The notes beneath the pieces are model-generated. The model saw nothing but the letters and a program-made list of their open reading frames with translations. It was not told the origin of the DNA and made no database searches. The position numbers and the translations under genes were made by a program. Positions 11,849-15,584 of a stretch of DNA of 16,358 bases are shown here, in pieces. The stretch's first letter is position 1. The number at the start of each line of letters is the position of its first letter. This stretch comes from Phormidiaceae cyanobacterium CTOTU46636. GTDB lineage: Bacteria > Cyanobacteriota > Cyanobacteriia > Cyanobacteriales > Aerosakkonemataceae. The DNA is taken from positions 1 to 16,358 of the forward strand of contig DALYKA010000154.1 of assembly GCA_031969595.1 (NCBI GenBank), written 5' to 3'.

Positions 11849-12388
11849 TCATAATAAGCTCTGCAAAAATGCTTCCAGTTCTGTCCGTCCTTGTTGGGTA
11901 ATTGAGTTGTAAAATACTTGTTCTTTTTCGTTGGGAGTGTAGAAGCGATAGAAGCGCCGATCTCGATCGACTTGCCGCAGGTAAACGAGGGGAACGCCAG
12001 CAGATGCAAGGAGTTGGGCTTTTTTGCGATCGCGCACCTGCACCTCTAAGCGATCGTGCCAGTGAGATTGACATTCTACTACCAATTTGGCTTGGCGGCT
12101 GGCACAATAGCCGCGTTCCATTACAGCGATATCGACTCTGGAACTAACCCAAAATTTCCAAAGTTCATTGGGAAGACGGGTGCAAGTTTCTGGACGGGAA
12201 CAGATGACTTCTAGGGGAACTTGGGGACAGTAACGGAAGCAATCGCCTAAAATCATCTCTAGAATATCGAGAGCGATCGTTTCTAATTCGTTGATGATTT
12301 CTCCGCTTTGGAATTGGGGAAAGATTTTCAGCGAATCATCATCGCTGTTGAAGTCGAACTCGTCTGAATAGTTGTAAGTAGAAGTCAT
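11849..12388 (-). CDS. DUF2726-domain protein with a PD-(D/E)xK restriction-endonuclease-like fold.
   Basis: The C-terminal region VDIAVMERG...AKLVVECQSHWHDRLEVQVRDRKKAQLLASAGVPLVYL follows the DUF2726 pattern (D-h-h-h ... hhhE-h-D/Q-x-SH ... R-x-RD ... L-x-x-AG-h-P-L). The gene is transcribed divergently from the NACHT gene. Confidence 0.5.
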   Translation of the reverse strand: MTSTYNYSDEFDFNSDDDSLKIFPQFQSGEIINELETIALDILEMILGDCFRYCPQVPLEVICSRPETCTRLPNELWKFWVSSRVDIAVMERGYCASRQAKLVVECQSHWHDRLEVQVRDRKKAQLLASAGVPLVYLRQVDRDRRFYRFYTPNEKEQVFYNSITQQGRTELEAFLQSLL

Positions 12389-12442
12389 TGATAGGAAATT
12401 GAACTCGATAGTTTGAGGTTACCAAGGTCAACCCTTGTCGCG

Positions 12443-12485
12443 CCAGTTCAGATCGGTTCAGAAAAAGTGAACCGATCTGAACTGG
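12443..12485. repeat. Perfect 18-bp inverted repeat with a 7-nt spacer (ccagttcagatcggttca gaaaaag tgaaccgatctgaactgg).
   Basis: Read directly. It lies 55 nt upstream of the DUF2726 start, in the divergent promoter region shared with the NACHT gene. Confidence 0.8.
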
Positions 12486-12584
12486 TCAAGAAACTAGATG
12501 CTGACTATGCTAGGGATAGTTTTGATTGAGATTTTGCGCCTGTGGTGTTGTCCCGCCGTGGACTCAAGTCCACGGCTAATAGCT

Positions 12585-12620
12585 CAAGTCCACTTAAGTG
12601 GACTGAAGAGCGCTTTTTTT
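12585..12620 (+). terminator. Hairpin (agtccactt aagtggact) followed by gaagagcgc and a run of 7 T, resembling an intrinsic terminator on the plus strand. A second hairpin ccgtggac-tcaa-gtccacgg lies just upstream at 12556-12575.
   Basis: Read directly. No obvious upstream plus-strand gene ends here, so this could terminate an intergenic sRNA or simply be part of the repeat cluster. Confidence 0.25.
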
Positions 12621-12630
12621 GGTCAGCATT

Positions 12631-12712
12631 TAGTCCTCTTTAGAGGACTTTCGCTATGAGCCAGGGGTTTAAACCCCTGGCGGGCTATGCAACTGATGCA
12701 AGATTCTCAATT
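12631..12712. repeat. Copy B of the dispersed structured repeat described at 6661-6745. It overlaps the annotated start codon of the NACHT ORF.
   Basis: agtcctctttagaggactttcgctatgagccaggggtttaaacccctggcgggctatgcaactgatgcaagattc aligns with agtcctcttgagaggactttagctattagccagggattttaatccctggcgggtaatgccattgatgcaagattt. Confidence 0.6.
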
Positions 12713-15584
12713 TCATCGATTTTGGTTGTTAGGGATGAGTCAAACTATGGCATCTCGCAGTGTTCGGATTGATGGCGCAGGTTTGGATAAAGTTCGTCAA
12801 CAGATGGCTAAATTGGAGAAGCCACTAAATCCAGATAAACGAGGTTGGTCTCAAAAAGACCTTGCAGAGCAGGCTTATGTGGGTATCAGTACCGTAAAAC
12901 GGTTTCTTGAAGGTACGCCACGCGATCGCGGTCCTGTCATTTCAATTCTTAAAGCATTAAAATTTGATGATCCCATAAACTTTATTGCCGAACATGACTC
13001 AAACTTGCAGAATTCCGAGCGAGATCCACAGCAAAACATTGCCATTGATTGGCAGCGAGTTTGCCAATCAATGTTACACGAGCAGCAAGAGGAGCAACGC
13101 TTCAGACGGAGAGCGACAGAAATGGGATTTGAAGTCAATGTTTTTGTGCCGCTAGGGTTAATCGAACGAAAACAGCAGCAGCGTCGCAGTGGGAATGTGC
13201 CTATGGAATTGGTGCATCAGTTAGAACAAGAAGTTATTACCCGAATTTACGAGCATGATGAATTCATGACTGACGTTATTGGACAAAACCCTAGTGGGAA
13301 AAATAAGCATATTGCTATTGTCGGAGAACCAGGATCGGGAAAGACAACGCTGTTAGATAAAATCGCCACTCACATTCAGCAAAATAATCAAGATTTACCG
13401 ATTTGCATTACGCTTGCAAGTTTGCAAGGAAAAATGCTGAAAGACTATATCCTTCAAGAATGGTTACCGGAAGCTATTTCTCTGGTTTATCCCGATATTG
13501 ATGTAGAGAAGTCTCACGAAACATCTCTACAGAAACGGTTGCGTCAGGGTGGAGTTTGGTTATTACTCGATGGTGTCGATGAAATAGGAGAAATTTCACC
13601 CGCCCAATTTGAAAAAATCCGTACTCAACTTACTGATTGGTTAGGTAAGGTGCGAGTTGTCTTAACCTGTAGAACCAATGTTTGGGATGCCCATCTCAAC
13701 AATCCCCTCATAGGTTTTGATACTTACAAAACTCAGGAATTTAAATCAGAGCAAGTCGATAATTTTATTCAGCAGTGGTTTGCTGAAGCGAAAAATATTC
13801 AACGGGGACAGGAGTTACAGAAAAAGCTACAAGAACCGCAAAAAGAACGCATCCGCCAACTCGTAACAAATCCGCTTCGGTTATCTCTACTGTGCCAAAT
13901 ATTTAACAAGAATAAGCAAGCCGAATTACCAGAAACAAAAGCCGAACTATATCAACACTTTGTCCGCTATTTCTATGAGTGGAAACCAGCCCAATCGGGT
14001 ATTGATTGGGCGACTCAACCAGGTTTACAAGAAGAATTACATCAAGCCCTCGGTCGTTTGTCTATAGCAGGATTGGATAGCGATGCTAGATTTCGGTTGC
14101 CGCTAAGTTTAATTCAGAAAGAGATGAGCGACAAGCTGTTTAAATTAGCCTGGAATCTCGGTTGGCTGAACTTGGTAGATCGGGAAGCCACAACAGATGA
14201 ACCTGTTTACGCATTCTTTCATCCCACATTTCAGGAATATTTTGCTGCCTGGGCGATTGATGATTGGTATTCCTTCCTAAATCACGTTCCTCATAATCCA
14301 GAAGAAGGTGTGTATCGCATTTTTGAACCACATTGGATAGAAGTTATTTTGTTTTGGTTAGGATTTCCTGAAACAAAAGTTCAATCAATAAGGAAGAATG
14401 AGTTTATTGATACTATGCTAAATTTTGAAGATAGTTGCGGGAATTTTTATAAATATAGATCTGATTTTTTAACAGCTAGGTTAATCGCAGAATTTAGAAA
14501 CTGTAATCGTTCCAACGAAATATTATCATGGCTAGTTGAGTCAGGCTTTGGCTATTTCAGAAAAGAGGACAATAATTGGCAATCTTATGACGGCTGGACA
14601 TCAGAGGCAGCAAGACAGGCAATCTTAGAAACAAATTCTTCTCTCGCTGTTTTTGCCCTAGTTAATCTTATCTATAAGTATCCTAGCAAAGATATTTGCC
14701 AGTTGGCGGCTTGGGCGTTGGGAAAGATTGCTTTGAGAAATACACAAGCAGTTAAGGCTTTAGTTTCTCTAATTTATACCAGTGTTCCTGATGCGCTCTT
14801 ATATCAGTGCGACTCCGCCCATTATCAGGCAATTCAGAGCTTAGGCGAGATTGGCTTCAATAACCCAGAAGCTATCAATGTATTGCTTAATCTTATTGAC
14901 ACGAAAACTGATAATTCTACTCGTGTCAGAGCTGCTGAGAGTCTGGGTAGAGTTTCTTCTGAGCATCTTACAAAATCAGTCACAACTCTGCTCGAACTTA
15001 TGGAACCCAATGAAGATGCTTGCATCCGTTGTCGAGCAGCGTATAGCTTATGGTATATAAACTTTGAATATTTAGAAAAATCAGTTGAAACACTGGTTGA
15101 AATTATACAGAGTAGCCCTGATGAATTTATTTGTCTTTATGCAGTTGATTACTTAAGAAGAATTATACCCAACCATATTGAAGTAATTAAAAGAACTATT
15201 CCCAAACAATTTATCTCTACTTCTCCTGAAGAAATTATCGAGGCACTCAATTTAGTATGTGATATTTATGATGATGCTGATCGGATTCAAAGATTCACCA
15301 TGTTTTTAGAAAAAATAGATGTATTTAATCCAAGAATTATTAATAGAATAGTTTATTTAATGCTGTGCAATTATAGTTATTTAACCCGTCATTACCTCAG
15401 TGAAATATTGATCAAAAATATTCATAACACCCAGTTAAATATAGCAGTTTCATTATTGAAAGATTGTTTAACAGATGAGATTCGTCGTAACGATTTTGAC
15501 CTCTACTATTTCTGCTCTAGGATTCTATGGCACTGTGCCCAAAATATGAGTTATCCAGAATTTTATCGCGCTTGGCACCGTTAA
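12687..15584 (+). CDS. STAND NTPase: an N-terminal XRE-type helix-turn-helix, a central NACHT domain, and C-terminal HEAT/ARM-like repeats (an NLR-like protein). The true start is probably downstream, around MSQTMASRS at 12735-12747, because the first ATG lies inside a dispersed repeat.
   Basis: Walker A is IAIVGEPGSGKTTLLDKIA and Walker B is VWLLLDGVDEI. The NACHT-specific TsR motif (VVLTCRTN) and the NPLRLSLLCQIF motif are present. The N-terminal RGWSQKDLAEQAYVGISTVKRFLEG is a Cro/C1-type HTH. The C-terminal 350 aa contain repeated HEAT-like units (AAWALGKIAL, VRAAESLGRV, CRAAYSLWYI). Confidence 0.85.
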   Translation: MQLMQDSQFHRFWLLGMSQTMASRSVRIDGAGLDKVRQQMAKLEKPLNPDKRGWSQKDLAEQAYVGISTVKRFLEGTPRDRGPVISILKALKFDDPINFIAEHDSNLQNSERDPQQNIAIDWQRVCQSMLHEQQEEQRFRRRATEMGFEVNVFVPLGLIERKQQQRRSGNVPMELVHQLEQEVITRIYEHDEFMTDVIGQNPSGKNKHIAIVGEPGSGKTTLLDKIATHIQQNNQDLPICITLASLQGKMLKDYILQEWLPEAISLVYPDIDVEKSHETSLQKRLRQGGVWLLLDGVDEIGEISPAQFEKIRTQLTDWLGKVRVVLTCRTNVWDAHLNNPLIGFDTYKTQEFKSEQVDNFIQQWFAEAKNIQRGQELQKKLQEPQKERIRQLVTNPLRLSLLCQIFNKNKQAELPETKAELYQHFVRYFYEWKPAQSGIDWATQPGLQEELHQALGRLSIAGLDSDARFRLPLSLIQKEMSDKLFKLAWNLGWLNLVDREATTDEPVYAFFHPTFQEYFAAWAIDDWYSFLNHVPHNPEEGVYRIFEPHWIEVILFWLGFPETKVQSIRKNEFIDTMLNFEDSCGNFYKYRSDFLTARLIAEFRNCNRSNEILSWLVESGFGYFRKEDNNWQSYDGWTSEAARQAILETNSSLAVFALVNLIYKYPSKDICQLAAWALGKIALRNTQAVKALVSLIYTSVPDALLYQCDSAHYQAIQSLGEIGFNNPEAINVLLNLIDTKTDNSTRVRAAESLGRVSSEHLTKSVTTLLELMEPNEDACIRCRAAYSLWYINFEYLEKSVETLVEIIQSSPDEFICLYAVDYLRRIIPNHIEVIKRTIPKQFISTSPEEIIEALNLVCDIYDDADRIQRFTMFLEKIDVFNPRIINRIVYLMLCNYSYLTRHYLSEILIKNIHNTQLNIAVSLLKDCLTDEIRRNDFDLYYFCSRILWHCAQNMSYPEFYRAWHR

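Follow-up and report, generated by a model that had tools for sequence, protein, structure and literature searches.

The two genes described here point away from each other on contig DALYKA010000154.1 of the Phormidiaceae cyanobacterium CTOTU46636. The entire contig (16,358 bp) was analyzed and is referred to as the window. Positions 11849–12388 on the minus strand encode a 179-amino-acid (aa) protein of the DUF2726 type, our effector candidate, and a mechanically called open reading frame (ORF) at 12687–15584 on the plus strand (965 aa) encodes a NACHT protein, the candidate sensor or regulator. Both ORFs lie where an initial annotation of the sequence had placed them. Its proposal that they form a functionally linked module resembling nucleotide-binding leucine-rich repeat receptors (NLRs) is supported by the conservation of the pair and by the exchange of sensor genes at one constant position in the chromosome.

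The NACHT protein combines an N-terminal helix-turn-helix (HTH) domain of the XRE type, a NACHT nucleoside triphosphatase (NTPase), a HEAT/ARM-like solenoid and an NCC-H (NACHT C-terminal Cys/His-containing) tail. The P-loop NTPase core (13311–13787, plus strand) matches Pfam NACHT (PF05729) with 55.5 bits against a threshold of 26.7 (E = 8e-15), compared to just 27.5 bits for NB-ARC, and the whole module ends near 14370 when its helical and winged-helix parts are counted. All of the motifs that the initial annotation named are present: Walker A (GEPGSGKT, aa 213–220, 13323–13346), Walker B with DGVDE (WLLLDGVDE, aa 291–299, 13557–13583), TCR at aa 327–329 and NPLRL at aa 395–399. The two Walker motifs fit the NACHT-clade signature, in which a Walker A of the form GxxxxGK[ST] is combined with a Walker B followed by D[GAS]hDE (Kibby et al.). 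The solenoid (14380–15491, plus strand), presumably the ligand sensor, matches HEAT_2 in three stretches (53.3 bits, E = 3.5e-14), and profile searches additionally placed NCC-H (PF22730; 51.6 bits against a gathering threshold [GA] of 27, E = 7e-14) on the conserved tail ...LWHCAQNMSYPEFYRAWH (15492–15578, plus strand, aa 936–964). In a full-length structural model of moderate confidence (predicted local distance difference test score, 73), the protein has a helical N-terminus, a NACHT module and an alpha-solenoid, with residues 530–949 folded as all-helical repeats through to the C-terminus. Foldseek matched the model to NLRP7 (1.1e-6), NLRP3 (6.7e-5; 1.2e-4 for the NLRP3 NACHT), PP2A-A and ARM repeats. 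A homolog from Nodularia spumigena is 40% identical across 94% of the protein.

The gene most likely starts at 12735 or 12747, because in five orthologous loci a stop codon interrupts the frame between ATG 12687 and ATG 12735 (codons 1–16 of the window ORF), and conservation begins at MSQTMASRS and continues onward from there. The ATG at 12687 was rejected on the strength of these stops. From the corrected start, the sensor gene would cover 12735–15584 on the plus strand and encode 949 aa. Its HTH domain spans approximately 12759–12992, with an XRE/Cro-C1-like core at 12837–12971 (both plus strand) that is sub-threshold in the window. Orthologous N-termini match HTH_3 at 2e-6 and HTH_26 at 1.3e-5, and an N-terminal profile searched against PDB matched SinR (1.5e-3) as well as HipB, lambda cI and HigA. 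The helices predicted in the full-length model (residues 14–26, 40–47, 51–58, 65–74, and 80–83) are compatible with an XRE-type bundle. The N-terminal XRE-type HTH of the initial annotation is thus supported at the level of the family, by orthologs, profile and model, and not by the window sequence alone.

The effector candidate matches DUF2726 (PF10881) above the Pfam threshold, so that the initial assignment holds, and its core has the alpha-beta-beta-beta-alpha-beta fold of restriction endonucleases. It belongs to a subfamily of 53 clusters (50% identity, E ≤ 1e-3) among 1.84 billion representatives, and the named protein-search matches of this subfamily are almost all cyanobacterial. Residues D86, E105, H111, D120, and K123 are invariant within it. 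At its N-terminus, a stretch of ~31 aa is acidic, with predicted disorder, and this acidic tail is conserved. DUF2726 and Vsr/DUF559-like PD-(D/E)xK proteins have both the fold and the D...E...H...D..K pattern in common with the window protein, whereas the window subfamily is small, well separated and cyanobacterial, has ExQ in place of ExD, and carries additional C-terminal strands. Within the conserved E105-C-Q107, the third catalytic position is the invariant Q107; canonical DUF2726 has D at this position, and the K of the Hje resolvase (ECK) aligns there in a weak profile match. In the literature, we found no member of the subfamily with a tested function.

Loci were collected by aligning the DUF2726 subfamily (A1) and scanning one genome per species, which gave 43 loci, nearly all cyanobacterial; partners were called from tblastn and Pfam scans of the gene divergently upstream of DUF2726. 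At 37 of the 41 informative loci this gene encodes an HTH-bearing sensor, which may be NACHT, NB-ARC with tetratricopeptide repeats (TPRs), or a LuxR-type HTH with TPRs. NACHT is the partner at 25 of the 43 loci and NB-ARC with TPRs at six. Six more, plus one degraded copy, have a LuxR-type HTH with TPRs and lack an NTPase; these are from Nostocales, and their DUF2726 proteins are ~36% identical. No such partner was seen at three loci (L043 and L027 have a transposase or reverse transcriptase nearby), and contig ends cut two others. Every partner begins with an HTH, either XRE-like or LuxR-like, whatever its NTPase or repeat class. Additional look-ups found a divergent NACHT gene in Planktothrix agardhii, in Picosynechococcus sp. 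PCC 7003 and beside a 39%-identity homolog. The distribution of the pair is patchy, and its genomic context differs between genera.

The genes are therefore syntenic in related genomes, a point that the initial annotation had singled out for checking, and well beyond them; DUF2726 identities at paired loci span about 36–90%, and the most distant locus with a NACHT partner stands at 39%. Cyanobacteria have many NACHT paralogs (Kibby et al.), and some could be neighbors of DUF2726 by chance. A fortuitous adjacency with no functional link is nevertheless effectively refuted by the synteny data, as the divergent arrangement is kept across genera and down to ~36% DUF2726 identity, and we give it next to no probability.

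One of the loci without a partner, L027, has a DUF2726-subfamily gene (57% identity) on a contig binned as a 'Sphingobacterium thalpophilum' metagenome-assembled genome (Bacteroidota). It adjoins a reverse-transcriptase gene and has no STAND (signal transduction ATPases with numerous domains) partner, and is probably either mis-binned cyanobacterial DNA or the result of a transfer. The locus in Picosynechococcus sp. PCC 7003 (L053; CP016474.1, ~2,248,512–2,261,030) is in the complete genome of a unicellular strain and contains a whole cassette of HTH-NACHT gene, small HTH ORF and DUF2726, with a sensor of 847 aa that has no HEAT or NCC-H Pfam match. PCC 7003 is related to the genetically tractable model strain PCC 7002.

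The small HTH ORF (82–92 aa) of that cassette recurs at many loci just 5' of DUF2726 and in the same orientation; its HTH match (MTAFQLSLFPDEPP...TTHRAAQLLEVSTTTLYRARKEG) is weak. It is found at L005–L015, L019, L021–25, L029, L044–47, L053, and L054 (e.g., L044, 5412–5690, minus strand), and is absent from the window, L001–4, L016–18, and L030–34. The DUF2726 proteins of L030–34 open with the small-ORF peptide MTAYQLSLFPN, which suggests that they arose by a deletion that fused them with the small ORF. We also considered a loss of the ORF from the window by deletion at a palindrome, and rejected this idea because L017 and L001–4 have the same layout without the ORF. Judging from these loci, the ORF-less layout is one of two natural layouts.

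Searching from the sensor side gave a second type of partner. Both of the close HTH-NACHT homologs (2/2) have a DUF2726 neighbor, and all five distant HTH-NACHT-NCAB1-HEAT-NCC-H homologs (40–49% identity, including that of Nodularia spumigena) have instead a divergent 117-aa gene, located 170–210 bp from the HTH-NACHT gene (L049–L052 and L056; e.g., L049, 3480–3833, minus strand). The 117-aa protein is conserved and has no Pfam hit on record. The four that were scanned match DUF4258 over the full profile at just sub-threshold scores (E = 6e-5 to 4.5e-3), and the fifth, from Nodularia, is a clear sequence homolog of the other four. The 117-aa gene of L049 is followed by one for a 436-aa coiled-coil protein that is weakly RPW8-like. 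An EAD4-NACHT paralog that lacks the HTH has neither a DUF2726 nor a DUF4258-like neighbor. These comparisons suggest a general rule in which an HTH-STAND gene is divergently paired with a small toxin-like gene and effectors can be exchanged, DUF2726 being one of two or more.

Sensors are exchanged as well. The XRE-like HTH occurs in three variants, namely type A, which is that of the window (...SRSVRIDGAGLDKVR...WSQKDLAEQAYVGISTVKRFLEG...), type A' (...KRRGFLPNREGLAILD...) and type A'', borne by NB-ARC proteins; LuxR-like HTHs come in two further variants. In Microcoleus, the cassette occupies a single chromosomal site between a cation-efflux gene (93–98% identical) and ABC-transporter genes (96–99%). 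The DUF2726 gene at this site is constant (84–88% identical to the window), while the sensor alternates among A-NACHT, A'-NACHT, A''-NB-ARC-TPR, and LuxR-NB-ARC-TPR. NACHT partners are 80–90% identical in the NTPase, but their C-terminal solenoids defy alignment. In an alignment of 26 sequences, mean identity to the window residue was 0.57–0.77 for the NACHT region, 0.37–0.42 for the HTH region, 0.10–0.34 for the solenoid and 0.44 for the NCC-H tail. A conserved switch joined to a diversifying sensor is, as far as sequence comparison goes, the pattern expected of conflict systems.

The same data bear on the idea that the pair serves non-immune signaling or self/non-self recognition, either as an ordinary ligand-responsive transcription factor (in the manner of MalT, GutR, or AfsR) for a repair/recombination nuclease or for stress, or as a polymorphic locus for kin discrimination among filamentous cyanobacteria, similar to fungal HET NACHT loci. 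HTH plus STAND plus repeats is indeed the architecture of known bacterial regulators, the Microcoleus site lies between housekeeping genes, models of known defense systems are unmatched, and the allelic variation at one locus is reminiscent of het loci. However, wholesale replacement of the sensor between flanks that are 93–99% identical is not expected of a metabolic or repair regulator, nor is an exchange of the target gene between two toxin-like folds, and the patchy distribution and shifts of context between genera also count against this idea. The presence of the pairing in unicellular Picosynechococcus further argues against a purely multicellular role in kin recognition. Overall, we consider a non-immune role improbable.

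The intergenic DNA provides the strongest computational argument for what the HTH might do. The perfect 18-bp inverted repeat that the initial annotation had pointed out is present (12443–12460 and 12468–12485, with a 7-nt spacer), and the region 12443–12485, which we refer to as the distal repeat, contains four CTGAAC-type half-sites that are 10–12 bp apart, center to center, making it a candidate site for the type-A HTH. The perfect palindrome was rejected as a conserved operator, as orthologs retain only its inner and right arms. What is conserved is the core GGTTCAG-N6-GTGAACCGnTCTGAAC, which is kept in Microcoleus/Tychonema (L005, L008, L011, L012, L013, and L044), Phormidium (L017), and Planktothrix agardhii (L046). 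These loci span four genera and all carry the type-A HTH. A different repeat, TGCAGTTA...TAAC[T/A]GCA, accompanies the type-A' HTH, whose predicted matched operator is TAAGTGCAGTTA...TAACTGCACTTA; it is found in Microcoleus and Phormidium, where the effector is DUF2726, and in Nodularia, where it is DUF4258-like. Another XRE subtype has GCAGATA-N10-TATCTGC, and NB-ARC partners have two or three AAGTTCCCC direct repeats phased at 10 bp. The distal repeats track HTH subtype and not effector, which is indirect evidence that the HTH reads the shared intergenic DNA, and the phasing of the half-sites in the window would match the need of an oligomerizing STAND regulator.

Between the distal repeat and the sensor gene lies a conserved block (GCTGAnTATGCTnGnnATAGTTTT; 12486–12551, plus strand) with a –10-like GATAGT. 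The block is kept in L005-type loci and in L017, and could serve the sensor gene as its promoter. The spacer as a whole folds far better than its shuffles (z = –10.1), in line with the hairpin-packed region of the initial annotation. Much of the hairpin content is not, however, specific to the system: positions 12552–12705, which hold about half of the hairpins and four of the five short ones, are one copy of a small dispersed repeat that is rich in hairpins, is bounded by CCCGCC...GGCGGG and resembles a miniature inverted-repeat transposable element. A second copy lies at 6528–6734 (86% identical over 74 nt) and another in the Microcoleus locus L003 (13650–13775). The repeat occupies the same position in Microcoleus and Tychonema orthologs and is absent from the spacer of Phormidium L017, which still keeps the GCTGAnTATGCTnGnnATAGTTTT block; its presence elsewhere and absence there led us to reject this part of the spacer as system-specific, and the repeat is not intrinsic to the system. 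It extends 19 nt into the long ORF; as part of the 5' leader of the NACHT coding sequence, it supplies the spurious upstream ATG. A scan of the whole window against Rfam found no family at gathering score, so that the structured spacer corresponds to no known RNA.

A second element, the proximal palindrome CTCGATA-N9-TATCGAG (23 bp), is present in the window as a degenerate copy with two mismatches (12404–12426). Across loci it sits 15–55 nt 5' of the first effector-side gene (16–38 nt in the window). Within 890 kb of fetched loci there are nine zero-mismatch copies, all of them in the intergenic region considered here (L001–4, L016–18, and L046/47; e.g., L001, 9963–9985; L017, 9952–9974; L046, 5873–5895), and in L049 and L052 the DUF4258-like effector has a copy with one mismatch upstream of it. 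Its position does not depend on effector type. The center is asymmetric and conserved, reading CTCAAA on the effector sense strand, and when G-U-compatible changes were used to assess the palindrome as an RNA hairpin, the strand assignments from the window and from L049/L052 conflicted. We consider it a candidate operator, core-promoter or 5'-untranslated-region element.

From the domains, the pairing and the repeats, we propose that the locus is a two-gene sensor–effector cassette in which a STAND-type, ligand-activated transcription factor controls a separate toxic effector, and we give this proposal about an even chance of being correct; its role would probably be in defense. The variable HEAT/ARM solenoid would sense a ligand, most plausibly a component of a phage or another invader, and the N-terminal XRE-type HTH would bind the phased repeats of the promoter region that both divergent genes share. 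NTP-dependent oligomerization would gather HTH heads on the clustered half-sites at 12443–12485, and the DUF2726 gene would then be switched on or de-repressed, so that its restriction-endonuclease-fold product could act as an effector that is toxic or targets DNA. The sensor might, in addition, regulate its own gene. DNA binding, the direction of regulation, nuclease activity and the role in defense are the parts of this scheme that we infer.

The initial annotation had offered two readings, of which the other was a two-gene system of NLR plus nuclease. In such a system, the NACHT oligomer would recruit or activate the DUF2726 nuclease directly, following the logic of Avs or bacterial NACHT (bNACHT) proteins with the effector split off; the HTH would tether the complex to DNA or would itself be an effector that coats DNA, and the divergent arrangement would reflect co-inheritance only. 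Tight co-inheritance of the two genes fits this alternative, as do the fused nucleases or peptidases of other NACHT proteins in the same clade, clade 13, and the conserved acidic disordered tail of DUF2726 could be a docking peptide. However, no adaptor domain (EAD or Death-like) is common to both proteins, and DUF2726 proteins that are 84–88% identical pair with unrelated NTPase and repeat modules, the Nostoc partner even lacking an NTPase. A specific protein interface is hard to reconcile with such partners, while control through DNA accommodates them easily. The intergenic motifs, moreover, track HTH subtype. We therefore think direct activation unlikely. The sequences give more support to the regulator reading, because the HTH is always kept in the partner and the repeats follow its subtype.

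Several results weigh against a regulator of a toxic effector in defense. With ExQ in place of ExD, the nuclease activity of the DUF2726 protein is uncertain. A search of IMG/VR viral contigs found no relative of the DUF2726 subfamily, and hence no sign that it is a phage gene. PADLOC had no match for the DUF2726 protein and only a partial one to mad8 for the NACHT protein (E = 9e-8), which NCBIfam models scored far below cut-off (EruA, 47 bits vs. 1000; DS-8, 32 vs. 790), so that none of the known anti-phage models (Avs, EruA, HyoA, DS-8, mad) in PADLOC and NCBIfam was matched at its cut-off. A defense-island context is not clear in the window beyond two nearby toxin-antitoxin (TA) pairs. The window HTH scores below Pfam thresholds (HTH_31, 18.8–19.3 bits, GA 27; HTH_3, 17.8 bits, GA 23), the outer left arm of the 18-bp repeat is specific to the window, and a scan of 11700–12800 for consensus sigma-70 promoters and intrinsic terminators found none in the spacer. 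The spacing of the type-A' arms varies (10 vs. 22 nt), a variation seldom seen in simple dimeric operators; these arms could instead form an RNA or DNA hairpin. Finally, the small HTH ORF lies between the two genes at many loci but is absent from the window.

The two nearby TA pairs also raise the possibility that the cassette is a TA-like addiction module, in which HTH-NACHT is a giant antitoxin or repressor that silences a toxic DUF2726 within a selfish cassette, without sensing. XRE-HTH proteins are common antitoxins and repressors, HipB and HigA are among the PDB matches of the HTH profile, and the alternative DUF4258-like partner is of a toxin-type family. An NTPase of 950–1300 aa whose Walker motifs are intact and whose repeat sensor evolves fast nevertheless far exceeds what repression needs, and we regard this alternative as highly improbable. 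It also overlaps the regulator reading that we prefer, which includes de-repression on sensing.

The architecture of the sensor has precedents. Kibby et al. catalogued HTH+NACHT+HEAT+NCC-H in cyanobacterial bNACHT clade 13 (Table S1), where paralogs carry caspase, trypsin, TRADD-N, EAD4, or REase-QIT (a restriction-endonuclease fold) in the N-terminal slot. Clade 13 has the same domain order as the window protein and is marked by NCC-H and often NCAB1 (Kibby et al., 2022/2023). The window protein has the NCC-H marker after HEAT, and we assign it to the clade by architecture, not phylogeny. That catalogue covers the protein alone, in contrast to the separate divergent effector and the HTH-matched repeats added here. 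In the main text of Kibby et al. (bioRxiv version) we found no reference to clade 13, and in text and supplements none to a DUF2726 or DUF4258-like neighbor; no member of the clade is known to us to have been assayed for anti-phage activity. Literature searches for DUF2726+NACHT and for STAND+HTH+phage defense returned nothing specific, and those for EruA/HyoA nothing relevant. The claim of the initial annotation that the combination is undescribed accordingly stands for the pairing with DUF2726 and falls for the protein architecture; what appears to be new is the effector pairing, the sensor swapping at a fixed locus and the HTH-matched repeats, none of which we found in the searchable literature or the bNACHT supplement.

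Kibby et al. also regard DNA-binding domains of bacterial NACHT proteins as 'adaptor' effectors that may activate a transcriptional response, cite CIITA as a transcriptional regulator, and describe bNACHT01 as having a conserved NACHT and a diversified C-terminus. Antiphage STAND proteins of the Avs or NLR-like type (e.g., REase-QIT+NACHT+NCC-H, from the same clade) are likewise built in three parts from an effector, a STAND module and a repeat sensor, the effector having the restriction-endonuclease fold. They carry the nuclease as a fused domain; in the window the HTH fills the N-terminal effector slot, and the nuclease-fold protein is encoded separately.

MalT of E. coli, GutR of B. subtilis and AfsR (SARP-NB-ARC-TPR) of Streptomyces undergo ligand- and ATP-driven oligomerization on several phased promoter sites. 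Like the window protein, they have a DNA-binding domain, a STAND NTPase and a repeat sensor in a single polypeptide, and the window region likewise has half-sites or direct repeats phased at 10–12 bp in a divergent promoter region; six related loci even have the NB-ARC+TPR layout of GutR and AfsR. The NTPase of the window protein is NACHT and not of the MalT or AP-ATPase (NB-ARC) clade, so that by analogy it would work like these regulators without being a member of their clade. Its putative target is a toxin-like nuclease-fold gene and not a catabolic or antibiotic pathway, and its sensor is hypervariable between strains. Bacterial STAND proteins have been studied mostly as transcription regulators (Kaur et al.).

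The remaining features of the window are as follows. An RlaP-type nucleotidyltransferase gene (415–1500, plus strand) has a tandem heptamer (ATTAGCA/ATTACCA)n upstream of it at 327–417, and an inverted 32-nt copy of this repeat (97% complementary) lies at 9800–9833 within the coding region of chlH, the Mg-chelatase gene (6797–10609, minus strand). A peptidoglycan-binding protein is encoded at 1933–3537 (minus strand). One TA pair, HTH_17/PIN_3 (4713–5762, plus strand), is flanked by ~59-nt segments that are 78% identical and rich in neighbors of the highly iterated palindrome HIP1 (GCGATCGC) (3834–3892 and 5697–5755), and by a further repeated pair (4626–4641 and 5804–5819); their flanking position suggests that the module was inserted as a cassette. 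The other TA pair, GNAT/TacA (10724–11632, minus strand), is associated with an exact 27-nt direct repeat, ACTCGCTCAGAGTTTTACTTTGCGCTG, with one copy just 3' of the GNAT toxin gene (10677–10703) and the other inside the TacA antitoxin gene (11407–11433). The contig end truncates a gene with Major Vault Protein repeats (~16060–16358, plus strand; Pfam Vault_2, E = 1.5e-16), whose 5' end immediately follows the NACHT gene. Bacterial homologs of the vault protein are uncommon.

More tentatively, and with a probability that we place somewhat short of even, the loci together may represent an NLR-like family with a transcriptional output, in which HTH-tipped NACHT or NB-ARC proteins with hypervariable sensing oligomerize on matched repeats in a divergent promoter and switch on an interchangeable toxin (DUF2726-type or DUF4258-like), carried in a module-swapping cassette at a fixed hot spot. 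The counterpart in mammals would be CIITA/NLRC5, NACHT-repeat proteins that have immune-gene transcription as their output, like that proposed here. This is an analogy only, as CIITA and NLRC5 have no DNA-binding domain of their own and act via an enhanceosome, whereas the HTH is fused directly to the window protein. To our knowledge, known bacterial NLR-like systems act through effector domains fused to the sensor.

If this is true, the cassette would be a transcription-coupled branch of prokaryotic NLR immunity, a bacterial analog of NLR transcription regulators, and it would give the DUF2726 subfamily and the DUF4258-like family their first biological context. The matched pairs of HTH subtype and repeat across genera amount to testable predictions of operator specificity, and the cassette of PCC 7003 is convenient for experiments. 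The syntenic Microcoleus locus, for its part, is a natural experiment in sensor replacement.

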